A stretch of DNA of 64,000 bases from contig OY760142.1 in NCBI GenBank assembly GCA_963663225.1, forward strand, positions 195,913 to 259,912. Reading direction: 5' to 3'. A program made the position numbers and the translations under genes. This DNA is from Nitrospirota bacterium. GTDB lineage: Bacteria > Nitrospirota > UBA9217. Under the pieces are notes generated by a model that saw only the letters and a list, made by a program, of their open reading frames with translations, made no database searches and was not told the DNA's origin. Below are positions 20,510 to 56,906 of this stretch, piece after piece (within the stretch, counting starts at the first letter, position 1; every line of letters starts with the position of its first letter).

Positions 20510-22138
20510 CTATTTGTCCGACGTTCCGTAAACGCTGCTGAGCAGCGCTCTGTCTATTTTCTTGCTTTTATTTTTGGGAAGCTGTTCGAGTCTGACAAGA
20601 TGCTGCGGGATCATATATCGGGGCAGGCTCTTTTTCAGGTTGTGGTGAATCTCTTCATGGCAGTCCGCGGCCGCCTCGTAAACAAGTTTGAGTGACTTAA
20701 TTTCACCGTTTTCCCGGACCGGGATGACAACATTACCCGTCACTGAATCAACTTTTGAAACAACTCTCTCGATTTCCTGCAAATTGATTCGATATCCGAA
20801 AAATTTGATCTGACTGTCCTTGCGGCCATGGATGCAGTAGCCGACCCCGGGAATAAAAGACGCGACATCCCCGGTCCTGTAAAACGGCACCCCGTGCTCA
20901 TCCCTTCCAAAAACCTTGTTCGTTTTGTCAGGATCATTCCAATATCCGATAGACAAATGAGGAGAATGGACGATGAGCTCTCCTCGCTCTTCATTTTCCG
21001 GGAAGTCGGTTTTGTCAAGCGTGAAACGGATTCCCATGATCGGGAAACCGATGGGAACGGCGCCTCCGTCCTCGCCCTTGTAATCGTTCAGCGAGAAAAC
21101 AGCCATCAGTGACGATTCAGTAGATCCATAGCCGTTGATAAACTTTGCGTTGGGCAGCATGGCCATCACAGTTGCCAAAATATTCCGGTTGGCGGGTTCT
21201 CCGCCGAGCAAAACAGTTTTTAGCCCCTGAAGATGCTCCGGCTTGATCAGACCGCTGTTTACGAGAGCGTTCAGCGTCGAGGTGACCAGCAGCGTTCTGG
21301 TGACTTTGTACGTATATGTAAGGTCCAGAATGTCCTTCGGAAAAATTACTTCTTCTGGGTAAACAGCAAGTGTTCCACCTGAACACAGCGGTGGAAATAT
21401 GTCAGCGGTTGAGGCGGAGAATGCGGTTGCATTCAGCCCACTGGTCACGTCATCCACGTTATAACCCAGGGTATCGATCACCCACTGGACATTCTTGAAA
21501 ATATTGCCGTGGGGAATCATGACGCCTTTCGGCTCGCCGGTGGAGCCTGACGTGAAATAAATCATCGCCAGATCATTCGGCAAAAGGTCTACTTTTTGTG
21601 GATCATCCCGCCGCGCGCTTCCGAACGGCAATTTGACGAAATCGCGTTCTTCGCCATCGTCAAGCAGAACGGCCTGAAAACGCCCTGGAGATAGTTCCGC
21701 ACATTTTCTGAACAGGTCAGCTGAAAAGCGGTCGGCAAAAACGCGAAGCGGCGATATTTCAATCAATAAATCAGTCAGTCTGGCCGGCGGTGTTTTGGTG
21801 TCCAGAGGAACAACGACTCCTCCCGCTCTTATGATGCCGATCATGGCGGCATACAGATAGATTGACCTGTTCATCATGAGTGCGACACGATCGCCTTTTT
21901 TCAGACCACTCTCCTGCAGATACTGTGAAACATCGAGAGTCAGTTCGCGCAGTTCATGATAGGTCCATGCTTTGTCATACAGCCGTATCGCGGCTTTTGA
22001 TGCGTGCAAAGCAAACATCTTATCGAGCAGATCCATGATGGTAGAAACGGCTGATTGATTTTCTGCTTGTTTCTGGTTTATCGCGGTGTTTTTTTCCATG
22101 GGATTCTTTTTGACAATTGCATTGTCCTGAAGTTCCAT
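20510..22138 (-). CDS. adenylate-forming enzyme (AMP-dependent synthetase/ligase, acyl- or aminoacyl-activating), ligase 1
   Basis: Start placed at internal ATG (MELQDNAIV) 2 nt after the upstream stop. AMP-binding motifs YFTSGSTGEPKGV, GYGSTE and YRTGD are present. Confidence 0.8.
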   Translation of the reverse strand: MELQDNAIVKKNPMEKNTAINQKQAENQSAVSTIMDLLDKMFALHASKAAIRLYDKAWTYHELRELTLDVSQYLQESGLKKGDRVALMMNRSIYLYAAMIGIIRAGGVVVPLDTKTPPARLTDLLIEISPLRVFADRFSADLFRKCAELSPGRFQAVLLDDGEERDFVKLPFGSARRDDPQKVDLLPNDLAMIYFTSGSTGEPKGVMIPHGNIFKNVQWVIDTLGYNVDDVTSGLNATAFSASTADIFPPLCSGGTLAVYPEEVIFPKDILDLTYTYKVTRTLLVTSTLNALVNSGLIKPEHLQGLKTVLLGGEPANRNILATVMAMLPNAKFINGYGSTESSLMAVFSLNDYKGEDGGAVPIGFPIMGIRFTLDKTDFPENEERGELIVHSPHLSIGYWNDPDKTNKVFGRDEHGVPFYRTGDVASFIPGVGYCIHGRKDSQIKFFGYRINLQEIERVVSKVDSVTGNVVIPVRENGEIKSLKLVYEAAADCHEEIHHNLKKSLPRYMIPQHLVRLEQLPKNKSKKIDRALLSSVYGTSDK

Positions 22139-22142
22139 CGCT

Positions 22143-23354
22143 TTACACGACAATTTCAGCAGGCAGCGCGTGACTGAGAAAATGAAGCGGGCTTGCTGAA
22201 AAACCATATGCTCCTGAATTAAAGAAGAGGAGAACGTCGCCTTCCTCGATGTCGGCAGCCAGTTCAATATCAGTTGCCAATACATCGTCGGGAATGCAAA
22301 GGCTGCCGGTTATTGTGTACCTGATTTCAGCACCGGATTTTTCCTCTCCTGACAGTGTATCAATCTCGTAGTTACGCCGTATTACCTGTCCAATACCGCC
22401 GGCCGCCGCATAGTGTTGATGCATACCGCCGTCAACGACAAGAAATTCACGAGCGTAGCCCTTCTTGCGATACAACACGTGAACCGCGTAAAGCCCGCAT
22501 TCCGCCACCAGAAAGCGGCCTGGCTCGATGATGAACGTGGTGTTTCTGAGCGGAGCCGTAAGCTCTTCATCGGCAAAAAGTCTGGAGAGACCTTCCCTAA
22601 GCGCCGCAAGATCGAGCGGGGGTTTTTTCCCGAACATATCTATCCCCCAGCCGCCGCCAAAGTTTATTTTTTCGATGACAATTCCGTATTTGTTCGCAAT
22701 TTCGACGCTTTTTTCGAGAATAAAGCGATAATTGCTCAAAATCTTGTCTGATTCCTGATATTGTGAACCAAGATGCAGGTGCAGGCCCCGGAAGCGGAGC
22801 ATCTCCGGGTGGGATTTGATTACGGCAATGGCTTCCTCCAACTGGTCTTCAGGAATGCCGAACTGGGTATCTCCTCCCATCTTCATGGCTGAGGCCGCAG
22901 GACGCGTTTTGGGGTTTACCCTGATGCCCACGTTTCCGGCTTTCTTTTTTGCGCGGCAAAGTTTCGCTATCGTGTGTATTTCTGAAACGCTTTCAGCATT
23001 TATGCAGGAAACACCGGCATCGATCGCCTGCGATAATTCATCAAGGGTTTTTCCGGGACCGGTGAATTCTATGCTATCTGACGAAAATCCGGCAATCAGT
23101 GCCGCCGCGAGTTCCCCCCCCGAGGCCACGTCGGCACCCATGCCAAGTGCGTTCATTGTTCTTAAGATGTCATTATTGGGATTGGCCTTGAACGCATAAT
23201 GGATTTTGAAATGCTCTGGCAGACAATCTGACAGGTCACGATACTTTTTTTCAATGACCTTTTTAAAATAACAAAAAACCGGAAGCTTTCTCCCATCAAG
23301 AAAAGCGAGAAGTTCCGATTTTGGTATCAGCTTGTAAAATTCTTGCTTGTTCAT
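22143..23354 (-). CDS. PLP-dependent decarboxylase, Orn/DAP/Arg decarboxylase fold (diaminopimelate-decarboxylase-like)
   Basis: 403 aa ORF; HYAFKANPNNDILRTMNALGMGADVASGGEL and GLHLHLGSQ motifs. Confidence 0.8.
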   Translation of the reverse strand: MNKQEFYKLIPKSELLAFLDGRKLPVFCYFKKVIEKKYRDLSDCLPEHFKIHYAFKANPNNDILRTMNALGMGADVASGGELAAALIAGFSSDSIEFTGPGKTLDELSQAIDAGVSCINAESVSEIHTIAKLCRAKKKAGNVGIRVNPKTRPAASAMKMGGDTQFGIPEDQLEEAIAVIKSHPEMLRFRGLHLHLGSQYQESDKILSNYRFILEKSVEIANKYGIVIEKINFGGGWGIDMFGKKPPLDLAALREGLSRLFADEELTAPLRNTTFIIEPGRFLVAECGLYAVHVLYRKKGYAREFLVVDGGMHQHYAAAGGIGQVIRRNYEIDTLSGEEKSGAEIRYTITGSLCIPDDVLATDIELAADIEEGDVLLFFNSGAYGFSASPLHFLSHALPAEIVV

Positions 23355-24951
23355 ATTTGTTTTTTATTTCCGCGTATCGAACTTTGCCGTTTTCAGCCAG
23401 GGGCAGACTTTTCACAATGTTGATGTTGTCAGGCACCATATACGACGGCAGGCGTTCCTTCATATGTTTGATAAGGTCTTCTTTTTTTAGACCGTCACAG
23501 GAAATGATTTCCGCTATTATGTTGTGGCCTTTCCGATCATCCGGAATTCCCACTACCGCGCAGTGTGTCACTCCAGGATGTTCCAGAATGCAGCTTTCCA
23601 CTTCTTTGGGATAAATTCTGAATCCTGAGCTCTTGATCATTCCATCTTCACGTCCCAAAACATACAGAAAACCATCGCGGTCGATTTTTCCACGGTCACC
23701 GGTAAAAACCACCTTGCCCGCAGAGATCGTTGGCTTTAAACACGCGGGTATCTCTGCAAGTTTTTTCTGCGAACCAGCAACTTCATTGATATACCCAAGC
23801 ATGGTGCCAGCACCGTAATGAATTATTTCTCCTTCTTCGTCCGGGGATGCGATTTGGGTATTGTCTTTCAAAATAAAAATGCGAGTCCCCTTAACCGGAC
23901 GGCCTACCGATGTCATTTTACCATCATAGTCGTTCGCTTTTAATATGCCGCTTCTGAACGTTTCACTCTGCCCGTATGTTTTTATTATTTTCGTCCTCGG
24001 GAAATAATGCTTCAACTGTTCCAAATATTTTCGTGCGAGGTCTCCTCCGGAAACAGTGATGTATCGCAATGTTTTCGTATCTTCCGGGAAGCCGTCTTCT
24101 CGGGGAACAGAAAGCATATCGGCCCAGATGGTAGGCACTGCGGAAATCCCTGAGATATTAAATCGTTTGATTGCCGTTGCAATATCCCGTGGAAACCAGG
24201 AATTCAAAATAATAAGATGGGCGCCCGATAAAATGCTCGAAAAGAGCTGATTCAGTCCGACATCAAACGAAAAAGGCAGCAGGCTGAGCAAACAATCTTC
24301 CCTGTTAATTTCAAAATCTTCAATTTCTGTGGTGACTCTGACGTACAGATCGTCGCGATCGATTAACACACCCTTTTGCTCACCTGTCGATCCTGAAGTA
24401 AATAAGCAGTATCCGCGTTTTTTCTGGGAATTTGAGAATGGAGCATGTATCCGGGGATCGCCCATGCCGTCAATTGCTGCAGAAGCGCCGGATTGTTGAG
24501 ATTCCTGGACCCTGCGAGCCGGGATAAAATTCAAAAACTCGATTCCATCGCTACAAAGAGCAAACCGCATATTCGATGTAATAGCATCTTCAGACGACAT
24601 AATCTGCTTTACCGTGCTTCTGTTGAGAATGATAAATTTAGGTTTGGCAACTCTCGCCAATCTTATTACGTGAGGTGGCTTCAGCCTCGAATTCAATGAA
24701 CAGGCGGCGCCGCCGGCCAAAATGGCACCAAGAATGGTTACTGCTGCATCGATGGACTTGTTCATGTAACTAGCAACCAGATCATTCGGCTGCATCCCCT
24801 CTCTGGTAAAGAAGTCTGCAACTTCTTTTACTTTTCGAGCCAGCATGCCATAGGTCAGGGTTTGGAGTGTTCCCCCGGGCAAACAGTGGGAAATCGCAGC
24901 TTTGTCATTGTGTCGCGCAAATGCCTGCTCTATGCGTCGGGAAAGAATCAA
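23296..24951 (-). CDS. adenylate-forming enzyme (AMP-dependent synthetase/ligase), ligase 2
   Basis: 551 aa ORF; LFTSGSTGEQKGV, YGQSE and FTGDRG motifs. The first codon appears to be TTG, overlapping the stop of the upstream carrier-protein gene. Confidence 0.75.
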   Translation of the reverse strand: MILSRRIEQAFARHNDKAAISHCLPGGTLQTLTYGMLARKVKEVADFFTREGMQPNDLVASYMNKSIDAAVTILGAILAGGAACSLNSRLKPPHVIRLARVAKPKFIILNRSTVKQIMSSEDAITSNMRFALCSDGIEFLNFIPARRVQESQQSGASAAIDGMGDPRIHAPFSNSQKKRGYCLFTSGSTGEQKGVLIDRDDLYVRVTTEIEDFEINREDCLLSLLPFSFDVGLNQLFSSILSGAHLIILNSWFPRDIATAIKRFNISGISAVPTIWADMLSVPREDGFPEDTKTLRYITVSGGDLARKYLEQLKHYFPRTKIIKTYGQSETFRSGILKANDYDGKMTSVGRPVKGTRIFILKDNTQIASPDEEGEIIHYGAGTMLGYINEVAGSQKKLAEIPACLKPTISAGKVVFTGDRGKIDRDGFLYVLGREDGMIKSSGFRIYPKEVESCILEHPGVTHCAVVGIPDDRKGHNIIAEIISCDGLKKEDLIKHMKERLPSYMVPDNINIVKSLPLAENGKVRYAEIKNKYEQARILQADTKIGTSRFS

Positions 24952-25220
24952 GCTTCATCTCCCGCCAATTTCTTTTCAATAAAATACGATATTTTGCTTA
25001 TGGAGTCGAAATTGTCCAAAGAAAGTTCCGCCGGATAAAAAATAACGTCAAATTTCTCTGAAAAAGCCTCAATAATCTGGATTGCTCCGAGAGAGTCGAT
25101 TAGCCCGCTGTCGATCAGCGAATCCTCTTCACCAATACTAGTACCACTCCCATTGCCATCCTTTGCGGCAATCTCTGTTATTATTTGTTTAACCGCTCCT
25201 TTTATTTCTGCTAACTCCAT
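24948..25220 (-). CDS. acyl/peptidyl carrier protein (phosphopantetheine-binding)
   Basis: 90 aa ORF; carrier-protein serine motif GLIDSLGAIQIIE; GGGGGG RBS-like run 8-13 nt upstream of the ATG. Confidence 0.75.
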   Translation of the reverse strand: MELAEIKGAVKQIITEIAAKDGNGSGTSIGEEDSLIDSGLIDSLGAIQIIEAFSEKFDVIFYPAELSLDNFDSISKISYFIEKKLAGDEA

Positions 25221-25282
25221 GCTGAATGCCCCCCATTCAACGATTATTTTTATAATGATGCAGCAATGTATATTTTTTTGAC

Positions 25283-29423: not shown

Positions 29424-30443
29424 CTATAATCCCAGTTTCTTTTTTGCGTTATTTATAAACGCCAACTCCGGATCGGAGTATATTTTTTGATACCCGTCTT
29501 CCCTTGTCATTACTCCGTCCCGGACCATGTTGGCGATTTCCCACACGTACGGGTGAAAACCATGGCGTTTCAGATGGACATCATTCCCGAAGGCATTGAG
29601 AAGACAGTTCGTGGAATTGCTGTCCGTGTCCTGAGGCGCCGTCCACCCGAATTCTCCGATCTGTTCAACCAGTGTTCCTTCGTGGTAAAACTCCCAGGCC
29701 ATGGGGTGAACGTTATAGGGGAACCGTTCCTGCATGGCGAAATGCTTCTCATTCAGAAAATATGATTCGATATCGGTTCCAGCCACTTCGCGCAGCGGAT
29801 TCAGGACCGCTTCCTGCGACATTTTGACGAGTGACGGATTCGTTCTCATAATCGAGGACTGCACCGGCGCCTGTCCAGGCGACCACCCGTATCCGATCAT
29901 GGGTATTTCCTGTTCAATGGCTGTTTTCAAACAGTATGACTTCACAATAGCCATACACGAGGTACAGATGGTACTTGCTCGTTCAAGCGTTTTTTTCGAA
30001 TATAGATCGCGGTCTGCTGCAACTGCAAAAATTTTTTTCAAAATGTCCCAGCGCGGTTTGAAAAAAATATGGTCCACATTCAACCGATCAGTCACCCGCC
30101 GAATGTTCGCCACGGCCGTCTCGGACACGAACCCGTTGTCCAGACTGACTGCCAGCACCCGCAGTCGGTATTTGTTTTTGAGCAGACTCATGGTGTAGGT
30201 CGAGTCTTTCCCGCCGCTATATGCCATCAAAATATCATAGGATCGGCGCCGGGCTGCCGGTCCTCCTGTCTGCTCCAGTAAATCCAGGAACTTCCGTTCA
30301 TATCTTTTTTTGTCTTCGGCGTGTTTTTTTTCCTTTCCGGCGGCCTGCTGGCAGTGCACGCAAACACCGGCTTCATCAAAACTGATGCCGGGAAAGGTTC
30401 CCGGCAATATGCAGCGCGTACAAACGGTTATATTAGATGACAT
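29424..30443 (-). CDS. N-acetyl sugar amidotransferase-like PP-loop ATPase (WbuX/PseA-like)
   Basis: Start at internal ATG (MSSNITVCTRC). N-terminal zinc-ribbon cysteines CTRC...CVHC followed by PP-loop motif YSGGKDS. Confidence 0.65.
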   Translation of the reverse strand: MSSNITVCTRCILPGTFPGISFDEAGVCVHCQQAAGKEKKHAEDKKRYERKFLDLLEQTGGPAARRRSYDILMAYSGGKDSTYTMSLLKNKYRLRVLAVSLDNGFVSETAVANIRRVTDRLNVDHIFFKPRWDILKKIFAVAADRDLYSKKTLERASTICTSCMAIVKSYCLKTAIEQEIPMIGYGWSPGQAPVQSSIMRTNPSLVKMSQEAVLNPLREVAGTDIESYFLNEKHFAMQERFPYNVHPMAWEFYHEGTLVEQIGEFGWTAPQDTDSNSTNCLLNAFGNDVHLKRHGFHPYVWEIANMVRDGVMTREDGYQKIYSDPELAFINNAKKKLGL

Positions 30444-31319: not shown

Positions 31320-32870
31320 TTATTCGTTTACGGCCATCAAGAGTGTTTTGCTGATTTTACCCGTTGTAGTCTTTGGAAGAGTTTCCAGAATTTCTACATA
31401 CTTGGGAACCATAAAGTTTTCGAGATGGTCCGCGCAATATTTCAAAATATCCTTTTCCGTCAGGCGCGCACCGTTCTCCAGCGCGACATACGCTTTAATT
31501 GCCTGGCCGAAAATTTCATCCGGAACACCAACGACTGCCGCCTCCACAATGCCGTCGAGCGCATACAGTACATTTTCCACTTCCTTCGGACTGACTTTTT
31601 CACCCTTGCATTTTATGATATCGTCTTTTCTTGCAACAAAATAAAAATATCCGTCCTCGTCCGTTCTGAAAAGATCACCGGTGTATAAGAGCCGCTCTCC
31701 TGGATACGTGCCCGGCTTCAGACGTTTTGCCGTTTCTTCGGGCAGATCCCAATATCCAAGCATTACATTGGAACCTCTCACCACCAATTCTCCCACCTCT
31801 CCGGGTGGCATCCGTCGGCCTTTTTCATCGACGATGAAAATTTCTTCATTCGGCATGCCTTTTCCCACGGAAGTGGGTTTTTTCTCAAGATCTGCCGGAG
31901 GCAGATAGGAAACCCGTTTGCATTCCGTCAAGCCGTACATCGAGTAGAGCTTTGCCTGGGGGAAAAGCTCACGCAATCTTTTTATATGGCTGACCGGCAG
32001 TGCCGCAGCGGTATTGGTAATGTACCGCAGAGTACTGAAGTCATATTTCTGAATATCTTTCATTTGCAGCAGAAGAGAAAAAATCGTCGGAACGCCGGGA
32101 AAACCCGTAACCTTTTCTTCAGTCATTACTTTAAGGACTTGAGCAGGGTAGGCAAAGGATTTTTCCAGCACGACGGTAGCGCCGACTCTGAATCCCATAA
32201 GAATCTGGTAAAGGCCGTAATCGAAGGTGAGCGGCAGCACATTGATAATGATATCCTGATCGGTATTGTCAAGATATGTCGTTATTGAATGCGCAGCCGA
32301 AACCATGTTCAGGTGAGAGAGCATGACCCCTTTCGGATTTCCCGTTGATCCAGAAGTATAAACGATGGAAGCCAGATCGAGATCAATGCATGTTTTTTTT
32401 ATGGAGCCGTTTATCGCATTGTTGCACGTAATTTTCTCAAAGGACAGAGGGGAGGACGCCAGACCGCTCCATATAACCGTTTGGAGATGGGGGGAAGTCG
32501 TGGACGCCACGACGTCCTTCCGGGCGTTCTGGGTAATCATTACCTTTGCCCTGCTGTTGTTCAGAATATACTCAAGTTTTCCGGACTTGGTCGTGTGATT
32601 GATCATCATGAATGCCGCGTTTGCCTTGAGTATTCCGAAAAGCGCAATGACTGCTTCGACCGAGTTGTCCATGAATACGGCGACCCGGTCGCCGCGCTCA
32701 ACTCCGGACGCCGCAAGAGCATGGGCAAGACGTTCTGAACGGGAATCTATATCAGCATACGTAAAACGCTTTCCCTGATAAATCAGCGCTGTTTTTTCCG
32801 GAAATTTTTGTGCGCTGGTTTCGAGAAAATGATTGACAAGTGTATGTCTGAACATGGCGGTGTCCATCAT
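31320..32870 (-). CDS. adenylate-forming enzyme (AMP-dependent synthetase/ligase), ligase 3
   Basis: 516 aa ORF; YTSGSTGNPKGV, YGLTE and YTGDL motifs. Confidence 0.8.
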   Translation of the reverse strand: MMDTAMFRHTLVNHFLETSAQKFPEKTALIYQGKRFTYADIDSRSERLAHALAASGVERGDRVAVFMDNSVEAVIALFGILKANAAFMMINHTTKSGKLEYILNNSRAKVMITQNARKDVVASTTSPHLQTVIWSGLASSPLSFEKITCNNAINGSIKKTCIDLDLASIVYTSGSTGNPKGVMLSHLNMVSAAHSITTYLDNTDQDIIINVLPLTFDYGLYQILMGFRVGATVVLEKSFAYPAQVLKVMTEEKVTGFPGVPTIFSLLLQMKDIQKYDFSTLRYITNTAAALPVSHIKRLRELFPQAKLYSMYGLTECKRVSYLPPADLEKKPTSVGKGMPNEEIFIVDEKGRRMPPGEVGELVVRGSNVMLGYWDLPEETAKRLKPGTYPGERLLYTGDLFRTDEDGYFYFVARKDDIIKCKGEKVSPKEVENVLYALDGIVEAAVVGVPDEIFGQAIKAYVALENGARLTEKDILKYCADHLENFMVPKYVEILETLPKTTTGKISKTLLMAVNE

Positions 32871-33142
32871 CAGGCGTTTTGGACCGCAACCGGTCCCGTA
32901 CTTGCTTTTTTGGCGACAAAATCGGCGAGCTTGCCGATGGAATCAAAGTTATCGGGTATTATTTCATCATCGGTTACGGCGAACCCGAATTTCTCTTCGA
33001 CAAAGGACACTAGTTCGAGCACGCCGGTTGAGTCGATAATGCCTTTTTCCAGAAAAGAGACCTCGTCGGTCAGTGTATGGTCATCCTGACCATATAAAAA
33101 GTTTTCTATGACAAAGGCTCTGATTACATCTTTCTGTTGCAT
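32870..33142 (-). CDS. acyl/peptidyl carrier protein (phosphopantetheine-binding), second copy
   Basis: Start at internal ATG (MQQKDVIRAF) with GGGGGAG RBS 7 nt upstream; carrier serine motif GIIDSTGVLELVSF. The longer ORF-track start at 33232 lacks this support. Confidence 0.7.
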   Translation of the reverse strand: MQQKDVIRAFVIENFLYGQDDHTLTDEVSFLEKGIIDSTGVLELVSFVEEKFGFAVTDDEIIPDNFDSIGKLADFVAKKASTGPVAVQNA

Positions 33143-33251
33143 AGTGGTGCTCCCCCTTTTGCTGGTTAATCGTATCTCTGTACACGTATATGTATATGTT
33201 AAAATGCCCGATAGAGCTGAGTTGATATGCATCCAGACGATCGCGGGATAA

Positions 33252-40021: not shown

Positions 40022-40918
40022 CTAAAACCAGCTTGTCTTGACCGTAACCACATCACCAGGCCGTAAGGTGAAATTTTTGCCTATGTCTCCGTTCATGACA
40101 TCTTTTATTTTTACTTTATGATTCTGAACCGCATCGCCTTCCTTTCGGGAGACAAGAACGTTGTTTTTGCTTGCGAACTCGGTAAAACCTCCCGCAGCCA
40201 GTATAGCGTCAAGAGCCGTCATGCCTTCGCTATAAGGGATAATGCCCGGCGTCCTGACCGCACCGGTCACTCGAATGCGGTTGCTGAACCCTCCTGGGAG
40301 ATAAATGATATCATTCGGTTCAAGCTTTACATCCTGGGAGTAATCGCCTTTTCCCACCAGTTGCTCAAAACTGACGGCAACTTTTTTCCCGGCTCTCAGC
40401 AAATAGGCATTGGGTAAATCAATGTTGCTGACTGATCCCAACTGTGCAAGAAGCTGCAGCAGCGTTGTATTTCTTCTGAGTGTAATCTGTCCGGAAGCTG
40501 CTCCACCGGCTCCGGCAGCGGCGCTGGCTGTTTGTCCGGCTGTGTCTGACAGCAACGCATTTGATCGGGAGACGCCGTCTCCGAAAACATACACTTTAAA
40601 ACTATTAATTGCCGTCACCGTGATGCTGACGACCGGCGCTTTTACATACCGCAGGAGCTCTTTTTCAATGACTTTTTTCAATTCAAGGGGGGTTTTGCCT
40701 TCCGCCTTGATGTCGCCGACAAGAGGCATTGAGACCATTCCATCCGGTCTTACCGGAACATGAACACTCAATTCATTGTTTCCCCATACTGATATCTGCA
40801 GCATGTCTTCCGCACCGATGACGTATCCTTCCGCATGAGCTGTTTTCATGTTCAGAGACAGCAGCGTCATTAAAAAAACCGATAAAACGGCCAAGACCAT
40901 CTTGTACGTTGATCTCAT
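40022..40918 (-). CDS. polysaccharide export protein (Wza-like)
   Basis: Start at internal ATG (MRSTYKMVLAVL) preceded by GGGGGG RBS; signal peptide; Poly_export-like region PVRPDGMVSMPLVGDIKAEGKTPLEL. Confidence 0.75.
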   Translation of the reverse strand: MRSTYKMVLAVLSVFLMTLLSLNMKTAHAEGYVIGAEDMLQISVWGNNELSVHVPVRPDGMVSMPLVGDIKAEGKTPLELKKVIEKELLRYVKAPVVSITVTAINSFKVYVFGDGVSRSNALLSDTAGQTASAAAGAGGAASGQITLRRNTTLLQLLAQLGSVSNIDLPNAYLLRAGKKVAVSFEQLVGKGDYSQDVKLEPNDIIYLPGGFSNRIRVTGAVRTPGIIPYSEGMTALDAILAAGGFTEFASKNNVLVSRKEGDAVQNHKVKIKDVMNGDIGKNFTLRPGDVVTVKTSWF

Positions 40919-41113
40919 AATTTCCCCCCGCAATTTTTTCGCAGAATAGCACCGCATTTTTGCAATGCTCCGCCCTCTCAGTCACAGACACGTGCCGGAG
41001 GGATAAAAAACCATTGTTTACATCCACTTCTTGCACAGCATCAGCTCCAAAAAACATTGTTCCGTGTTTGGTCGCTGATTTTTACGATCGAACGGCGAGC
41101 ATTCAATTGTTTG

Positions 41114-41767
41114 TCAACACAATGATTCTACTTCCTGGGCTGCCACTCGTATGGAAACGCTTCTGCCGAGCAGTTCTACAGTAACCTGGAACAGATATTC
41201 GTTTTCTTTCCGGATCAGAATGCCTTCTGCATTTTTGAGCGGGCCGTTTTTAATCCGGATCCGGGTCCCCTGTTTCAAGTGCGGATAGACATCCAGCTCT
41301 TTGCCGCTCTCGACGAGAAGCCGTAAGGAATCTATCTCTTCGGGAGCAACCGGTGTCGGCTTGCCGGGTTCCAGCGAGATGAAAGTCACAACCCCTCGTG
41401 TCCTCAGCACGTCTAGGAACGCCTCAGGTCCGGGACTAATTTTCACGAAAAGGTATCCTGGAAACAGTGGATATTTGACGATCTTTTTTCTGTCTTTCCA
41501 CTGGCTGACCCGCTTTGCAGCAGGCAGAAATGCTTCCAGATTTTTTTCAGTCAGTTCATCCAGAACAACGAATTCATGCCGCGATTTTACATGAACGGCA
41601 TACCAGCATACCGTCTGCTCTGCCGGCGATTGTCGACTAAAATGAGATTCCGAAAACACTATAGACCGTGCCAGTTCACATTGATTCATGAGTTCCACGT
41701 TTCCTTTTATTTCCGTATTCCCGATTTTCCAGTCCATGCAGGCGACAGGAAAGGACTTACCGATCAC
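41114..41767 (-). CDS. NusG-paralog transcription antiterminator (UpxY/LoaP/RfaH-like)
   Basis: NGN-domain motif CWYAVHVKSRHEFVV...YPLFPGYLFVK and C-terminal KOW-like GTRIRIKNGPLKNAEGIL. True start uncertain; candidate Met codons at 41767, 41737 and 41689. Confidence 0.7.
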   Translation of the reverse strand: MIGKSFPVACMDWKIGNTEIKGNVELMNQCELARSIVFSESHFSRQSPAEQTVCWYAVHVKSRHEFVVLDELTEKNLEAFLPAAKRVSQWKDRKKIVKYPLFPGYLFVKISPGPEAFLDVLRTRGVVTFISLEPGKPTPVAPEEIDSLRLLVESGKELDVYPHLKQGTRIRIKNGPLKNAEGILIRKENEYLFQVTVELLGRSVSIRVAAQEVESLC

Positions 41768-41791: not shown

Positions 41792-42688
41792 TTATTCCGG
41801 ATCCTGTATCCCCAGAGCATGAAGAAGAGCGGAATAATCGATACTTTTTCTCACACCCTGATCATGAGAACCCCAATAGAGCGTTTCAAAGTCGAGGTCC
41901 TTTACGATATCCCGGACCATAGCGGGGTCAACCTCTTTCGTTTCTTCAATAAAAGCGGTCAACAGCAGGAAGTCACACATGATGTTTACCAGCCGTGGGA
42001 CTCCCTTTGTGTACTGGTAAATAAGATCAATGCTCCCATCGGAAAACGTTACGGCGTCTCTGTTGCCAGCCACTTCATGACGGTGCAGAATATACTCTAG
42101 CGTCTCTTCTTTTGTCAGCGGGCTGATCCGGCAATTGATGCTGATGCGCTGACGAAGTTGACGCAGCTGCGGTAGGGCAAGAACATCCCTCAGTTCAGGC
42201 TGGCCGACGAGAACAATTTGCAGCAGTTTCGAGGTGCTGGTCTCCAGATTTGACAGCATCCTGATTTCTTCCAGCAGATCAGGCTTTAGGTTCTGCGCCT
42301 CATCAATAATAAGAACCGGATTAAAGCGCCTCGCATGCTGTTCTATCAGAAAATCATTCAGGTCTTTGAACAGCGTGACTTTGTCCTTTCCTTGCACTGC
42401 AAGCCCGAAATCATCATTGATCATAGCGATCAACTGTTCGGAAGTAACTTTTGTGTTAAAAATCTTAGCGAGAGTGACATTGCCTGCCAGTCTTTTAATA
42501 AGATCGCTGATAAGCGTCGTTTTACCTGAGCCGACTTCTCCCGTCAGGAGTATAAAGCCCGCCTTTTCCCGTATTCCATATTGCAGATAGTGAATCGCCC
42601 GTTTATGGGTTCTGCTCATGTACAGGAAATCAGGGTTCGGTATAAGCTCAAACGGTTTTGTTTTAAAATTAAAAAATGCTTCATACAT
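41792..42688 (-). CDS. ExeA-like AAA ATPase (secretion-ATPase type found in PEP-CTERM/EPS loci)
   Basis: 298 aa ORF; Walker A LLTGEVGSGKTTL and Walker B LIIDEAQNL. Confidence 0.75.
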   Translation of the reverse strand: MYEAFFNFKTKPFELIPNPDFLYMSRTHKRAIHYLQYGIREKAGFILLTGEVGSGKTTLISDLIKRLAGNVTLAKIFNTKVTSEQLIAMINDDFGLAVQGKDKVTLFKDLNDFLIEQHARRFNPVLIIDEAQNLKPDLLEEIRMLSNLETSTSKLLQIVLVGQPELRDVLALPQLRQLRQRISINCRISPLTKEETLEYILHRHEVAGNRDAVTFSDGSIDLIYQYTKGVPRLVNIMCDFLLLTAFIEETKEVDPAMVRDIVKDLDFETLYWGSHDQGVRKSIDYSALLHALGIQDPE

Positions 42689-42777: not shown

Positions 42778-43200
42778 TCATATTTCTACTCTTATTTCCG
42801 GCTTCGCTGCATTGCTGACCAGAGCTGATTCAGCACCGCTTTTACAGTTTTCCATGATTTGATTTACGAGATCCCGGAATTTCGTATAATCAAGCGGCTT
42901 TATCATACAATGCAGCAGTGATTTGTCCACGTTATCGAGCATGATTGCCAAATCTCGGTTCAGCCGGTCAGAAAGGATGATGACCGGAAGTTTTGTTTTA
43001 ACAAGCTCTGCCAGTACGACTGCCCCATATGGATAGCTTGTTATGACGAGACCGAAATCTTCGCAGTTCAGTATTGATGTGATGCTTTGAAGATCGCTGG
43101 TAACAATAGTGGAATACTTTTCTTTTTCCAGTATTGCCGAGCAGATACGTGCAAATCTTGCTTCATCAATTATTAATATCTTCTTTGTTTGGATTTCCAT
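42778..43200 (-). CDS. stand-alone receiver-like domain protein lacking the canonical phospho-acceptor Asp (atypical or pseudo-receiver)
   Basis: 140 aa ORF; beta1 KILIIDEA, conserved Ser/Thr (PVIILSD) and Lys (IKPLD) positions present, but the expected Asp after beta3 is Thr/Ser (GLVITSYP). Confidence 0.55.
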   Translation of the reverse strand: MEIQTKKILIIDEARFARICSAILEKEKYSTIVTSDLQSITSILNCEDFGLVITSYPYGAVVLAELVKTKLPVIILSDRLNRDLAIMLDNVDKSLLHCMIKPLDYTKFRDLVNQIMENCKSGAESALVSNAAKPEIRVEI

Positions 43201-43333
43201 GGCAATAATACTAATAGCAAATTCAATGCCTGAGATAAAAGTCCAATTATTAAGGCAGTTTCAATTTAAAAAATCAGCTTTCCAGAAATTTGTTTCTCAA
43301 GTATACACATTTCAAAAAAAGTCGTTGTTTTCG

Positions 43334-53673: not shown

Positions 53674-55098
53674 TTATTCTTCGCTCGAAGTTTCCTGCTG
53701 CTGTTTAAGGCGCTTGCTCAGCGCTGGCTGCGATATGCCCAAAAATCGGCTTGCCACAGACTGATTCCCTCTCGCACGCTTCATGGCTTCCGCAATGAGA
53801 AGCCCCACGGTCTGCTGAATGGAAGGCAGAGTTTCCACACTTTCGAAGATATTCGCGGAATCAGCATGAAAACGCGAAGGGGTCCGGTCATGTGAAGCAC
53901 TTATCTTTTTAAATTGTTTGGTTGAAACAGTGCCCGAGGCGGACTGAGCAACGGCGTCGAACACCATCGAACGCAGTTCCCGGATATTGCCCGGGAAATT
54001 ATACTGTTCAAGAAGCGGGACCAGATCAAAGGCATAATTCAGCTTGTCCTTTCCGAGAGAACGGGCCGCTTCCTCCAGAAAATAATCGAGCAGCAGCGGG
54101 ATGTCTTCCTTTCGATCGCGAAGCGGAGGCAGGTGTATATGGTGCGTGTGCAAACGGAAAAAAAGGTCCTTTCGCAATTCTCCCCGCGCCTGTTTTTCAG
54201 TAAGGTTCTGGTTCGTGGAAGCGATAACGCGCGCATTCAACCGTTTCGGCCTGTCGCTGCCTAAGGGAAAGTAATCTCCCTCCTGAAGAAGACGCAGAAG
54301 CTTCACCTGCGATGCATTGTTCAGGTCGCCTATTTCGTCCAAAAAAAGAGTCCCCAGGGCCGCCTGTTCCACCATGCCGCTTCTCGGCTGGTCCGCGCCG
54401 GTAAAGGCGCCTTTTACGTGTCCAAACAAGGTATCGGTAAACATGGCATCATCAAGTCCTCCCACATTCACCGATACCAGCGAACCCTTGCAGCCGCTTA
54501 AGGTATGGACTGCATTGACGATGAGCCCTTTTCCCACGCCGCTTTCACCCGTAACCAGCAGCGGCTGGCTGCTTTTGGCTACCGCTTCCACGTATTGGAA
54601 AATCGTTTTCATCGTTTTATTCAGCGTAATGATGCCTTCAAACGCGTGGGGATCCCGGAGTGAATCCGACAGAAAACTCCTGGTCATCTCGCGGTTCTCC
54701 GAACGCATTTCTATGATTTTTATCGCATGCTGGATTGCGGTAATAATCCGGCATTCTTCGGCAGTCTTGACCATATAATCGAAAGCGCCGTGTTTCATGC
54801 AGGTGACCGCGGTCTCGAGCTGGCTTATGCCGCTGCAGACAATCACTATTATCTCGGGGAACTGTTCGTTTATCAGTTTCAGAAGTTCTTCTCCCGAGAG
54901 GTTGGGCATCGTGAGATCCAGCAGCACAATGCCGATCTCCTGCTGGGCCAGTATCTCTAAAACATCACGGCTGTCCTGGCAGGACATCACATTGGTGATG
55001 CCTGCATGCCTCTCAAGGGACATGCGCATGGATCGGATCCATGCCTGCTCATCATCCACGATCAGGATGCGAAATGACGGATACCCTGCTGCACTCAT
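53674..55098 (-). CDS. sigma-54-dependent response regulator (NtrC family: receiver + AAA+ sigma-54 activation domain + HTH)
   Basis: Start placed at ATG forming an ATGA overlap with the kinase stop; receiver ILIVDDE...LLDLTMP; Walker A GESGVGKG; GAFTGA motif; C-terminal HTH (RARGNQSVASRFLGISQPALSKRLK). Confidence 0.85.
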   Translation of the reverse strand: MSAAGYPSFRILIVDDEQAWIRSMRMSLERHAGITNVMSCQDSRDVLEILAQQEIGIVLLDLTMPNLSGEELLKLINEQFPEIIVIVCSGISQLETAVTCMKHGAFDYMVKTAEECRIITAIQHAIKIIEMRSENREMTRSFLSDSLRDPHAFEGIITLNKTMKTIFQYVEAVAKSSQPLLVTGESGVGKGLIVNAVHTLSGCKGSLVSVNVGGLDDAMFTDTLFGHVKGAFTGADQPRSGMVEQAALGTLFLDEIGDLNNASQVKLLRLLQEGDYFPLGSDRPKRLNARVIASTNQNLTEKQARGELRKDLFFRLHTHHIHLPPLRDRKEDIPLLLDYFLEEAARSLGKDKLNYAFDLVPLLEQYNFPGNIRELRSMVFDAVAQSASGTVSTKQFKKISASHDRTPSRFHADSANIFESVETLPSIQQTVGLLIAEAMKRARGNQSVASRFLGISQPALSKRLKQQQETSSEE

Positions 55099-56906
55099 GC
55101 CTGAACCTCCCATTCTGCCACAGGCAGTTTGATAATTACGGTTGCTCCCTCGCCGGGCTTGGAATTAAAACTGAGCGTTCCCCCATGCTCCTTCACAATT
55201 CCCGCGGAGATCGCAAGCCCGAGACCCGTTCCGCCGCTGTCCCTCTTGGTGGTAAAAAAGGGATCGGTCACGCGGTTCAGATGTTCCGGCGGAATGCCGA
55301 TTCCATCGTCGTGCACCCTGATGATAATCGTCCCGACTTCACGCTCATATGAGGTCATGACAAATATCCCTTTGTCGACAAACGGCAAGCCGGGAAACGA
55401 GCTCATAATATCTACCGAAGGCTGTGGCGTGCGCTCCGGCTTCTGCCGGTTGGCGCTCTCAACGGCCTGCGCCGCATTCAACACAAGGTTTACAATCACC
55501 TGTTCGAGCCGGTGCGGATTGCCCTTGATCAAAGGAAGCGGTTCCGTGCAATAAACAGCGCAGTGGATGGCCGAGCTTTTCAACGAGTGTTCCAGCAGCC
55601 GGACGGAAGTCCGCACCACATTGTTCACGTCGAACAGCTCCTTGGAATTGGAATCGTTTTTCCGCGAAAAGTGCTTGAGATCGTCGACAATGCGCTTGAT
55701 GCGCTTTACCGCAACCTGCATCTCGTCAAGAAGCTGGGGAAGTTCCTTGCGCATCCGTGAATACGGCAGACCACCCATTAAAAATTCCCCGTGTTCACGG
55801 TAATAAGCATCAAGAATCGGGTCGGCATCTTTGATGACCTCGCTGACCAGCGGCAAATTAAAAAGAAGCAGACCGTTCGGATTGTTGATTTCATGGGCCA
55901 CGCTCGAGACAAGAACACCCAGGGCAGCCATCTTATCGGCCTGGATCAACCGCTGGTGCTGAAGCCTCAGCTCTTCATCCATGCGTTTGCGTTCTTCCAC
56001 CTCGCGGTTCAGGGCAGCGGTCCTGGCGGCAACCCGCATCTTCAGCAGTCTGGACCAAATAATGGACGCAAGAAGGCCGAAAATAAGCGCGGAAACAATG
56101 TACATGTTGTATTTTTTCAGCCATTTCCAGGAAGCATACTCTGTATCCACATTTCCCAGCCATTTTTCCTGCAGTTCCTGATACCGGCCCGTCTCTTTGA
56201 GAAATGCCAGCCCTTCATTGAATTTTTCCAATGTAGCCAGGTTCCCTTTTCTGAAGGCAAAGCAGTACTTGCTGGTATCGATATTCTTGGCAACCAGTTC
56301 TACGTTTGTGATCTTTAAATCGGTAATCAGATATGTTGCCTGAAGCGTTTCCAGCACGGCATAGTCATGTTTAGCCGAGGCAAGCATCTTCACTGCCTCC
56401 GCAATGGACGAAACAGTGACTATCTGAATTTGGCTCCATGCCGCCCGGGAGTAATCGTGTTTTCCATCCAGGCTCACAAGAACGACTTTCTTTCCGCGGA
56501 GATCATCAAGGGATGAAACCGGAGATGCGTCTGTTCTGGCGAAGATGGAATGAGAAATTGCGGAATGCGGCGAAGAAAGGTCCAGGATATGCGCCCGTTC
56601 TTCCGAAAAGGGAAGGCCTTCGATAACATCAATACGGCCGGTTTCCACATCCCTGAATATCGTGGACCATGATTTTTCCAGCTTAAACGTGACTTCAACG
56701 TCCATGGTCTCGGCTATGGCTTTTGTCAACTCCACAATGAAACCGGCGGGCTTGCCATCTCTGTCAATGAACTCATACGGTGGATGGGCGCTGTTGCCGC
56801 CTACAACGATCATGTGTTTGGAGTTATCGGTGTTCTCCGCGGCCAGAGTCTGAGCATGGAGAGCTGGTAATAACAGCAGCAGACAGATGAAGGCTCTCAC
56901 CATCAT
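55095..56906 (-). CDS. sensor histidine kinase with N-terminal periplasmic solute-binding (SBP type 3-like) domain
   Basis: 603 aa ORF; signal peptide; periplasmic domain about 230 aa; one TM helix; HisKA H-box (LVSSVAHEINNP); HATPase motifs (HDDGIGIP, GGTGLGLAI). Confidence 0.8.
   Translation of the reverse strand: MMVRAFICLLLLLPALHAQTLAAENTDNSKHMIVVGGNSAHPPYEFIDRDGKPAGFIVELTKAIAETMDVEVTFKLEKSWSTIFRDVETGRIDVIEGLPFSEERAHILDLSSPHSAISHSIFARTDASPVSSLDDLRGKKVVLVSLDGKHDYSRAAWSQIQIVTVSSIAEAVKMLASAKHDYAVLETLQATYLITDLKITNVELVAKNIDTSKYCFAFRKGNLATLEKFNEGLAFLKETGRYQELQEKWLGNVDTEYASWKWLKKYNMYIVSALIFGLLASIIWSRLLKMRVAARTAALNREVEERKRMDEELRLQHQRLIQADKMAALGVLVSSVAHEINNPNGLLLFNLPLVSEVIKDADPILDAYYREHGEFLMGGLPYSRMRKELPQLLDEMQVAVKRIKRIVDDLKHFSRKNDSNSKELFDVNNVVRTSVRLLEHSLKSSAIHCAVYCTEPLPLIKGNPHRLEQVIVNLVLNAAQAVESANRQKPERTPQPSVDIMSSFPGLPFVDKGIFVMTSYEREVGTIIIRVHDDGIGIPPEHLNRVTDPFFTTKRDSGGTGLGLAISAGIVKEHGGTLSFNSKPGEGATVIIKLPVAEWEVQA

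Follow-up and report, generated by a model that had tools for sequence, protein, structure and literature searches.

The region analyzed here is a 64,000-nucleotide stretch of DNA (the window) from a Nitrospirota bacterium of the GTDB lineage UBA9217 (assembly GCA_963663225.1, contig OY760142.1, positions 195,913-259,912), in which the gene for a specialized NusG paralog is followed by an untranslated gap carrying a conserved hairpin and an ops-like sequence. Within an exopolysaccharide cluster that spans at least 43 kb, the paralog gene comes third and is followed by ~37 co-directional genes (41 kb). All substantial open reading frames (ORFs) from 43200 to the window edge are on the minus strand, with very short or overlapping junctions, and they include XrtA/PEP-CTERM genes, consistent with the long co-directional polysaccharide transcription unit proposed in an earlier interpretation of the letters (hereafter, the sequence-only reading). 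The first gene past the gap (40022-40918, minus strand) encodes a Wza-like XrtA/PEP-CTERM export protein (TIGR03027, 212.5 versus a cut-off of 180 bits) with the Pfam domains Poly_export and SLBB. The gap measures 195 nt (40919-41113) if the export gene starts at ATG 40918 and 156 nt if it starts at ATG 40957, in agreement with the 150-200 nt noted earlier.

The maximal frame of the paralog in the ORF map (41114-41767, minus strand) codes for 217 amino acids (aa) from a GTG, and the start used by public gene callers (ATG 41737) gives a product of 207 aa (P0001). We favor ATG 41689 as the start because the homologues of 190-194 aa align from this position and a potential ribosome binding sequence (AAGGAA) lies ~12 nt upstream. 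The product is likely a 191-aa protein (41114-41689, minus strand) of the UpxY family with a disordered N-terminal tail of ~27 aa followed by NGN and KOW regions, and the 217-aa ORF is likely over-extended at its 5' end. The tail itself (residues 1-27, 41609-41689, minus strand) has a predicted local distance difference test score (pLDDT) of ~41 and a barely conserved sequence; its length is kept in about half of the homologues (190-aa forms), and it is absent from homologues of 164-170 aa.

The assignment to the NusG family rests on several comparisons. Residues 54-149 of the 217-aa frame match the Pfam NGN domain (PF02357; E 7e-22, 78 bits versus a cut-off of 22), and the protein contains the peptides WYAVHV and YPLFPGYLFVK. 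Residues 55-210 of the same frame match the UpxY hidden Markov model (HMM) of NCBIfam (NF033644; 127.6 bits versus a cut-off of 100, E 4e-37), the sole NCBIfam model above its curated cut-off for this protein. The models for RfaH (TIGR01955, 80.5 versus 144.5 bits; NF006534, 51.1 versus 124 bits), LoaP (NF033641, 69.8 versus 125 bits) and NusG (53.5 versus 135.7 bits) all scored below theirs. The Pfam scan reported no KOW match in the paralog. From the WYAV motif onward the protein aligns to full-length NusG and RfaH chains of solved structures, KOW region included; for example, query residues 29-188 align through the KOW region of the Bacillus subtilis, Thermotoga maritima and Escherichia coli NusG proteins.

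An AlphaFold2 model computed with 109 homologues has an NGN domain with pLDDT values of 84-95 over residues ~28-125 and a disordered segment comprising the first 22 residues. Foldseek superposed the model on RfaH (8pen_P) with a TM score of 0.86 and a root mean square deviation of 1.9 A over 99 columns, and matched many NusG chains with E values down to 2e-12. The model also resembles the solved 'NusG-RNA complex' 8f5g (TM 0.59-0.64), which was the second-best sequence match among solved chains. These results confirm that the ORF encodes a NusG-family protein with the NGN fold, which its HMM score places in the UpxY family, and they uphold the sequence-only reading in its identification of a specialized NusG paralog and in the fold that it expected. 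A protein search retrieved 536 homologues, and the named ones are called NusG or 'UpxY family transcription antiterminator'. The paralog is correctly annotated already in public databases, and its conserved candidate loading site appears to be undescribed.

Alignment of the gap with those of two closer relatives, L080 (77% identity) and L082 (68%), both fully syntenic with the window, revealed one strongly conserved block, CTGTGACTGAGRGGGCGGAGC. We used this block to derive a fuzzy pattern and gathered instances with it across all related loci; 69 matches were found in ~64 loci, all on the strand of the paralog. A covariance model (CM R1) built from a sequence-only MAFFT alignment of 68 distinct instances describes a conserved element of ~60 nt composed of an RNA hairpin and then GGCGGAGCATTG. 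In the window, CM R1 gives one strong, full match at 40953-41024 on the minus strand (52.3 bits, E 1.8e-16), our candidate loading site, which lies 128 nt past the stop codon of the paralog. The next best match (9 bits, E ~1) is in the Rossmann motif of an epimerase gene, and the core pattern is unique in the window, where 0.01 matches are expected by chance. The covariance model detected no second copy that could serve as a re-loading site in the 43-kb cluster.

The element is tied to the gene in its position as well as in its strand. All but four of the 69 fuzzy-pattern matches start 38-280 nt past the stop codon of the paralog, whichever gene comes next. CM R1 matched 70 of the 81 related loci, five of them outside the seed; three of the 11 loci without a match are contigs that end just after the gene. 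The sequence is nearly invariant across Nitrospirota, Smithella and Geobacteraceae, and also across paralogous loci of one metagenome-assembled genome (MAG; L013, L023 and L057). A few loci have an unusual copy number or placement of the element (L064 at 851 and 1466, L033 at 5971, L009 at 11595, L169 with two matches, L089, L155 and L174). Some of these have two copies, which flank the paralog or lie 5 kb deeper in the cluster, and in others the element lies shortly before the paralog, the order known from Bacteroides, so that both gene-site and site-gene orders occur in the clade.

Between the element and the start codon that comes next there are 7 to 396 nt, so that no fixed spacing, as would imply ribosome recruitment, was found. 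A strong ribosome binding site, GGGGGGAAATT, precedes ATG 40918, and translation from there gives a normal signal peptide. In its maximal form, the Wza-like ORF begins instead at ATG 40957, only 7 nt past the putative pause described below, and GGAG within the element resembles a Shine-Dalgarno sequence for it; the public call of the Wza-like gene of L080 (6702) begins inside the hairpin. The long calls of this gene probably over-extend through the regulatory element. The hairpin is not an intrinsic terminator, as no U-tract follows it and a terminator scan of the minus strand of the gap found none. Rfam returned no match in the whole window at gathering thresholds and, in the gap at E values up to 10, only chance-level matches to small nucleolar RNAs and riboswitches.

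The hairpin is formed by a 5' arm, AUCCCUCCGGCAC (40992-41004, minus strand), identified from the fold, the pairing across the family and an alignment-free duplex test, and a 3' arm, GUGACUGAGAGGG (40973-40985, minus strand), identified from column frequencies and pair counts. The consensus arms of the 68 instances pair upstream CCUUCUCRGUUAC with downstream GUAACYGAGARGG. On the MAFFT alignment, 84% of the cells in this 13-pair helix can pair, versus 43-50% when the 3' partner is slid by 1-3 columns. The pairs are maintained by different base combinations: pair 31-67 is A-U in 26 instances, G-C in 17 and G-U in 16, and pair 34-64 is U-A in 38, C-G in 8 and U-G in 7. About 17% of the helix cells are G-U, and the changes in the 5' arm are transitions, facing a 3' arm that stays constant. 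Because the G-U cells and the transitions in the 5' arm are strand-specific, the pairing fits a structure that is made in RNA rather than a palindrome in duplex DNA. Independently of any alignment, the 3' arm anneals to the 46 nt upstream with a mean of -14.6 kcal/mol, as compared to -7.1 +/- 2.7 kcal/mol for random 46-nt segments of the same loci, and the real partner beats 95% of the controls in 54 of the 68 instances. Furthermore, RNAalifold with RIBOSUM scoring predicted a 12-bp helix of -20.5 kcal/mol. The loop varies from 4 to ~30 nt and sometimes holds a nested hairpin. By analogy with UpxY, which recognizes upstream DNA (PMC11685472), the conservation of the 3' arm in sequence may also reflect a contact with the upstream DNA duplex.

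The hairpin leads into the 12-mer GGCGGAGCATTG (40974-40963, minus strand), which includes GCGGAGC (40973-40967), a candidate mini-hairpin of the non-template strand. GCG.AGC shows little or no variation among the 68 instances. At positions that played no part in their selection, T is found at -1 in 65/68 and G at +1 in 56/68, if the conserved T 40964 is numbered -1 and G 40963 is numbered +1. With this numbering the tail in the window reads G-11 G-10 C G G A G C A T T-1 and then G+1. The ops element of E. coli is GGCGGTAGCGT followed by G. When GGCGGAGCATTG is compared with the E. coli ops 12-mer GGCGGTAGCGTG, 8/12 positions are identical at the same length and in the same register, including GGCGG and the T and G that flank the pause. 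The sequence-only reading had reported that no ops-like sequence could be found in the gap; this was mistaken, since GGCGGAGCATTG differs from GGCGGTAG by one missing T. The RfaH-type site GGCGGTAGnnTG is not itself matched, as the window site keeps 8/12 positions in register and is without T6. Elemental pauses of RNA polymerase have the consensus G-10, Y-1, G+1, and the tail fits it with G-10, T-1 and G+1. Mini-hairpins with GNA loops, such as GCGAAGC, are very stable.

A close parallel is offered by the UpxY proteins of Bacteroides. These factors are recruited at pauses in the leader, where a NusA-stimulated pause hairpin reaches -12 to -9 and the non-template strand forms, within -11 to +1 of the pause, the mini-hairpin YGCGNAGCR (Saba et al., 2024; PMC11685472). 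The NGN domain of UpxY also reads the upstream duplex DNA, in a site of ~40 bp, and the hairpin RNA itself is not a recognition determinant (PMC11685472). The corresponding ops hairpin of E. coli is GCGGTAGC (PMC11685472). The element studied here shares the three parts and the geometry of the Bacteroides sites. GGCGGAGCATTG contains the GCGNAGC core of class-1 opsX, with GCG-R-AGC at -10 to -4 of the putative pause and with G and A, not Y and R, as the flanking bases. The 13-bp helix likewise places the 3' base of a pause hairpin at -10/-11 of the putative pause, and its sequence-conserved 3' arm falls in the stretch that upstream duplex DNA would occupy.

We also approached the linkage from the opposite direction, by scanning metagenome contigs with the exact pattern TGTRACYGAGARGGCGRAGCA. 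At least 120 contigs matched, and the counts that follow are all among the matches listed. Ninety-seven contigs had at least 250 nt of sequence upstream of the element. In 62 of these 97, the strand of the element carries a paralog ORF whose end is 49-272 nt before it (525 nt in one contig); in three, the paralog is immediately downstream in the Bacteroides-like order; and in 32, the element stands alone with no NusG-like ORF nearby. The gene family thus leads to the element and the element back to the gene family, and the earlier suggestion that the gap could carry a recruitment element is borne out to this extent. Full-length model matches (29-59 bits) were obtained for 31 of the 32 stand-alone copies, with L092 giving a partial match only (16.8 bits). 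Recognizable polysaccharide or PEP-CTERM genes follow 15 of the 21 stand-alone copies that were examined, with names assigned by reading the sequences rather than by HMM scans. They include Wza-like exporters, priming sugar transferases, UDP-GlcNAc 2-epimerases, a nucleotidyltransferase, a tetratricopeptide repeat (TPR) lipoprotein, a deacetylase and a PEP-CTERM ATPase. Because stand-alone elements precede other polysaccharide operons, the sequence data suggest that the factor may also act in trans. Of the remaining six copies, four precede YdcF-like proteins, one has no ORF in range and one has no recognizable product. In the four former cases (L118, L166, L173 and L180), the element is followed within 44-110 nt by a membrane-anchored protein of ~200-250 aa that resembles the DUF218/YdcF family by eye (motif SSPYHMKRI) and may be a recurrent separate target.

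The direction from which polymerase reaches the element can be predicted from the promoters. A good match to the -24/-12 consensus of sigma54, AGGCATTGAATTTGCT (GG-N10-GC; 43216-43231, minus strand), ends 15 nt before ATG 43200 of the first gene in the unit, which codes for a receiver-like protein, and is conserved in L080 and L082. A sigma54-type motif occupies the same position before the receiver-like gene in 23 of the loci scanned (21 related loci plus L080 and L082), and in loci without receiver-like and ATPase genes before the paralog it is usually found tens of nt upstream of the paralog. Since sigma54-type promoters precede the unit or, in many loci, the paralog, the paralog gene is most likely transcribed before polymerase arrives at the element. 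The promoter scan detected no sigma70-type promoter on the minus strand in the gap. The sequence-only reading had pointed to two leaders in which to search for conserved motifs. One of them (the gap, 40919-41113) holds the element; the other (43201-43330) holds the sigma54-type promoter and not a recruitment site.

Taking these lines of evidence together, we favor a pause-and-load module for processive antitermination of the UpxY/RfaH type, in which the loading site follows the gene of the factor, and assign this interpretation a probability of roughly 70%. Transcription would start at the sigma54-type promoter (43231-43216; start at ~43205) and run through the genes of the receiver-like protein, the ATPase and the paralog. 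Some 150 nt past the stop codon of the paralog, polymerase would transcribe the hairpin (41004-40992 paired with 40985-40973) and then reach GGCGGAGCAUU and the G that follows it. There it would enter an elemental pause at U 40964 (G-10, U-1, G+1), which the hairpin, with its base at -10/-11, would stabilize. The open bubble would expose GCGGAGC on the non-template strand, where a GCG-N-AGC mini-hairpin can form. The NGN domain of the paralog would recognize the mini-hairpin, and probably also the conserved upstream duplex TGTGACTGAGA, and take the NusG site on polymerase. Modified in this way, polymerase would resist Rho-dependent and other termination over ~41 kb of exopolysaccharide genes. 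The computations show the family of the protein, the element with its hairpin, the strand- and position-specific linkage of element and gene, and the match to ops and opsX; the pause, the DNA mini-hairpin, the binding, the use of the promoter and the antitermination proposed in the sequence-only reading are inferred.

Several observations weigh against this interpretation. The position of the pause, the binding of the factor and the antitermination are argued by analogy. Eight related loci with enough downstream sequence have no detectable element, and a third of the elements in the reverse scan (among the matches listed) have no adjacent paralog. Collection with a fuzzy pattern inflates the apparent conservation of columns -23 to -4, and RNAalifold with default scoring predicted no consensus structure. 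The hairpin of the window is among the weaker copies, with an imperfect stem of 11 pairs and two bulges (-14.6 kcal/mol, z ~-1.5). In the AlphaFold2 model, the C-terminal KOW region is beta-stranded at low confidence (pLDDT 43-56). A promoter may also lie inside the gap, upstream of the element; the L080 gap has a plausible sigma70-like pair by eye. Lastly, terminator-like sites in the cluster, which an antiterminator would be expected to override, are near chance in number (32 versus 22 +/- 5 and 23 versus 20 +/- 5).

The alternative that survives best, although still unlikely, is that the paralog behaves like LoaP and binds a stem-loop of the nascent RNA via its KOW domain or basic surfaces, with GGCGGAGC as part of an RNA site rather than a DNA signal. 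The use of an RNA hairpin has been proposed for LoaP (quoted in PMC11685472), and the hairpin of the element is maintained with G-U pairs and compensatory changes. The conservation of the 3' arm in sequence as well as in pairing would also suit an RNA-binding factor, as would the resemblance of the AlphaFold model to the NusG-RNA complex 8f5g (TM 0.59-0.64). Set against this are the LoaP HMM, which falls short of its cut-off (69.8 versus 125 bits) while the UpxY HMM passes, and a loop whose length and content vary freely from 4 to ~30 nt. Furthermore, the single-stranded tail agrees at each position with the pause consensus and with the DNA signals of ops and opsX, and the one UpxY system that has been tested used DNA and the NGN domain, not the hairpin RNA (PMC11685472).

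We consider it improbable that the paralog has a different role, such as pausing, coupling to translation or secretion, or assistance to termination, and that the element is another cis-acting RNA, for example a processing or stability signal, with a coincidental resemblance to ops. The linkage of gene and element in both search directions is difficult to reconcile with coincidence, as are the three independent features that match known loading sites (the hairpin distance, the GCGNAGC core and T-1/G+1). The very long polysaccharide operon is also typical for antiterminating NusG paralogs (PMC7819879). In favor of another role, some UpxY proteins enhance pausing rather than suppress it (PMC11685472), the next start codon lies at no set distance from the element (7-396 nt), and Rfam has no family for the element.

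It is more improbable still that the element is a site in duplex DNA, either a sigma54 promoter from which the export operon is transcribed or an operator whose inverted repeat binds a dimeric factor, and that the paralog is unrelated to it. PEP-CTERM loci are regulated by sigma54 and true sigma54 promoters are nearby; in the window, GGGCGGAGCATTGCA can be read as GG-N10-GC and then TTGCA, and the two arms of the hairpin make an inverted repeat at the DNA level. The family alignment speaks against the promoter: 37 instances have GGGCGG and keep N10, but 30/68 have AGGCGG (GG-N9-GC), and the -12 C is present in only 29/68, so we rejected the sigma54 reading of the element. A site in duplex DNA is also opposed by arms that are 4 to ~30 nt apart and unequally conserved, by ~17% G-U pairs, which become A-C mismatches in duplex symmetry, and by full-length matches that are all on the strand of the gene. 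The notion that the conserved nucleotides encode a small leader peptide (...VTERAEHC...) can be set aside, for although one frame is open across the core with two variable positions on third codon positions, an ATG, GTG or TTG occurs in frame before the upstream stop in only 38/69 (few of them ATG) and in none of the other 31/69, the ends of the peptide vary, and all 68 sequences, which come from several phyla, keep the four-fold degenerate third base of an alanine codon (GCG) but differ at first and second codon positions.

A more specific version of the pause-and-load interpretation, which we regard as possible yet doubtful, is that the module primes itself. The gene would be placed between the promoter and its own loading site, and a hairpin-stabilized pause ~150 nt past the stop codon would let the coupled ribosome release the fresh factor beside the polymerase. 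With the polymerase held near the stop codon while the ribosome releases the factor, loading would therefore be preferentially in cis and the 41-kb operon would become an all-or-none feed-forward switch. The stand-alone copies would then represent a cross-phylum 'EPS (exopolysaccharide) ops regulon' of Nitrospirota and Desulfobacterota.

Among known systems, the module would work like UpxY with class-1 opsX and like RfaH with ops. As in Bacteroides fragilis (Saba et al., 2024; PMC11685472), the factor belongs to the same NCBIfam family and is encoded in the polysaccharide operon that it presumably controls. The site is similarly multipartite (~40-60 nt), with the base of the pause hairpin ~10-12 nt from the pause (inferred in our case), a GCGNAGC core and a conserved upstream-duplex region. 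The arrangement differs, however. The Bacteroides site is in the 5' leader, ~41 nt before the start of the gene, and the factor is first in the operon; here the site is past the stop codon and the factor is third after the promoter. A site just upstream of the gene is found only in L033, L064 and, among the matches listed, 3/97 metagenome instances. Bacteroides also has an adjacent gene, upxZ, encoding an inhibitor of non-cognate UpxY. No gene separates the paralog from the export gene in the window, and a UpxZ-like gene is absent, although no homology search was made with UpxZ itself. Such ORFs as the gap contains all overlap the element and show no conservation of coding sequence, and where the interval is longer in relatives, it is filled by a gene for a 451-aa sugar transferase. 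The Bacteroides promoter is invertible and of the sigma70 type, as opposed to the sigma54 type seen here. The core flanks are Y...R in opsX and G...A in our element, and each Bacteroides locus has its own version of opsX, whereas the element is near-invariant across phyla and has stand-alone copies.

The likeness to E. coli RfaH and its ops signal (the JUMPstart element) lies in the 12-nt signal with a GGCGG 5' half, T-1/G+1 and a GCG...AGC mini-hairpin, in targets that are long operons for envelope polysaccharides, and in stand-alone sites that imply action in trans. Unlike RfaH, the paralog scores below the RfaH cut-offs and is usually encoded next to its site, RfaH being a lone gene. The loop of the mini-hairpin is one base shorter (GCG-G-AGC versus GCG-GT-AGC), the element includes a large upstream RNA hairpin, and the model, at its low confidence, shows no autoinhibited KOW domain in alpha-helical form. 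Bacillus LoaP, which acts at a leader hairpin of the dfn and mln operons, is also an operon-associated NusG paralog whose cis site has a small conserved transcribed hairpin, and the AlphaFold model of our paralog superposes on the NusG-RNA complex 8f5g. The paralog differs from LoaP in scoring below the LoaP cut-off; the targets of LoaP are polyketide antibiotic operons of Firmicutes, and no ops-like single-stranded DNA core has been described for it. TaA of Myxococcus xanthus, a NusG paralog within the ~40-kb operon that it is thought to activate in a deltaproteobacterium-like lineage, is comparable in its setting but serves an antibiotic (myxovirescin) cluster (PMC7819879). Our literature search retrieved no paper combining a NusG paralog with PEP-CTERM or exosortase, and the reviews of such factors that we consulted (including PMC7819879) mention neither Nitrospirota nor a site of this kind.

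The genes around the module define an XrtA/PEP-CTERM exopolysaccharide cluster. Gene 1 (42778-43200, minus strand) encodes the 140-aa receiver-like protein, which matches Response_reg at 19 bits, below the Pfam cut-off, and has no NCBIfam match. It has no output domain, and its phospho-acceptor Asp is replaced by Ser (VITS versus VISD in CheY, by eye). The protein thus resembles a pseudo-receiver, and its gene is syntenic with those of the paralog and the PEP-CTERM ATPase in many Nitrospirota loci. Gene 2 (41792-42688, minus strand) codes for the XrtA/PEP-CTERM ATPase (TIGR03015, 399.9 bits versus a cut-off of 324.5). Past the export gene, ~36 further co-directional genes (3-40012, minus strand), delimited with the ORF map and NCBIfam, are the presumed target. 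They start with a chain-length determinant (TIGR03007; 38450-40012, minus strand) and include an XrtA-associated tyrosine autokinase (TIGR03018) and an outer-membrane protein (TIGR03016), all three above the NCBIfam cut-offs. Farther downstream are genes for an epimerase, AsnB-type amidotransferases, an acyl carrier protein (ACP) and exosortase-A-associated acyl-CoA ligases, and others for a pyridoxal phosphate (PLP)-dependent decarboxylase, acetyltransferases and glycosyltransferases. Exosortase XrtA was not found among the ORFs scanned, a set that left out seven ORFs between 3 and 6572.

Two segments of the cluster (20510-24951 and 31320-33232, minus strand) encode three adenylating enzymes similar to acyl-CoA ligases, two of which match the model of the exosortase-A-associated ligase (TIGR03098) below its cut-off. 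The cluster also encodes an ACP-like protein, a TIGR03099-like PLP-dependent decarboxylase and several hexapeptide acyltransferases. The presence of these ligase-like enzymes, ACP-like protein, decarboxylase and acyltransferases suggests that the cluster makes a polysaccharide decorated with acyl groups or amino acids. The intergenic gaps of the cluster are mostly shorter than 60 nt, with a single exception of 331 nt (24952-25282), where an internal promoter or a processing site might be located; CM R1 detected no further copy of the element there. The best terminator-like hairpin on the coding strand (30386-30406, minus strand) has a 9-bp stem with 6 G-C pairs and the tail TCAGTTTTGA. It sits in the overlap of two genes and may be a signal for termination inside the cluster that an antiterminator would have to overcome, although sites of this type are altogether at chance frequency.

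The same genes recur in the relatives. A scan at one genome per species gave 79 related loci, mostly from Nitrospirota/Thermodesulfovibrionales, with some from Smithella, Geobacteraceae and unclassified deltaproteobacteria. The paralog is always co-directional among the same PEP-CTERM genes, and the gene order varies. The closest relatives include Nitrospirota MAGs at 57-62% identity.

The region upstream of the unit has features of its own. No Shine-Dalgarno sequence is present between the sigma54-type promoter (43216-43231) and ATG 43200, and from the sequence a 5' untranslated region of only ~5 nt is predicted, which would make for an mRNA with little or no leader. A tight spacing of 5-24 nt between promoter and ATG (extrapolated from tblastn) was seen in 23 of the loci scanned. 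Two palindromes, TGTATCCATTGGATACA (TGTATCC-N3-GGATACA; 43352-43336) and TGTTTCTAAAAGAAACA (TGTTTC-N5-GAAACA; 43412-43396), lie 105-180 nt upstream of the sigma54 -24 element, a distance typical of activator sites, and a further conserved block, GTGTATACTTGAGAAACA, is found at 43291-43308. All three are conserved in L080 and L082 and are candidate sites for enhancer-binding proteins, in a region shared with a divergent glmS gene. Ten kb upstream (53674-56906, minus strand), a sigma54-dependent response regulator matches TIGR02915, the PEP-CTERM-box regulator, at 276 bits (below the cut-off of 503), and its gene overlaps that of a histidine kinase with a periplasmic domain of the solute-binding type. 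This regulator/kinase pair could drive the sigma54 promoter of the cluster.

Loading sites of specialized NusG paralogs are known experimentally for RfaH, since 2024 for the UpxY proteins of Bacteroides and, in outline, for LoaP; the candidate site described here would be a third, defined by its sequence. It joins features of ops and opsX, occurs in at least two phyla of mostly uncultured anaerobes and is tied to the widespread XrtA/PEP-CTERM system for biofilm polysaccharides. It also predicts, to the single base, the position of the pause and the sequence that the factor would read. Annotators would do best to treat the 195-nt gap as a regulatory element. The covariance model can be used to map the regulon of the factor in genomes and metagenomes and, if the module is self-priming, that regulon would be readable directly from the genomes. 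As a natural variant with the site after the gene, the system bears on whether factors of this type load in cis.

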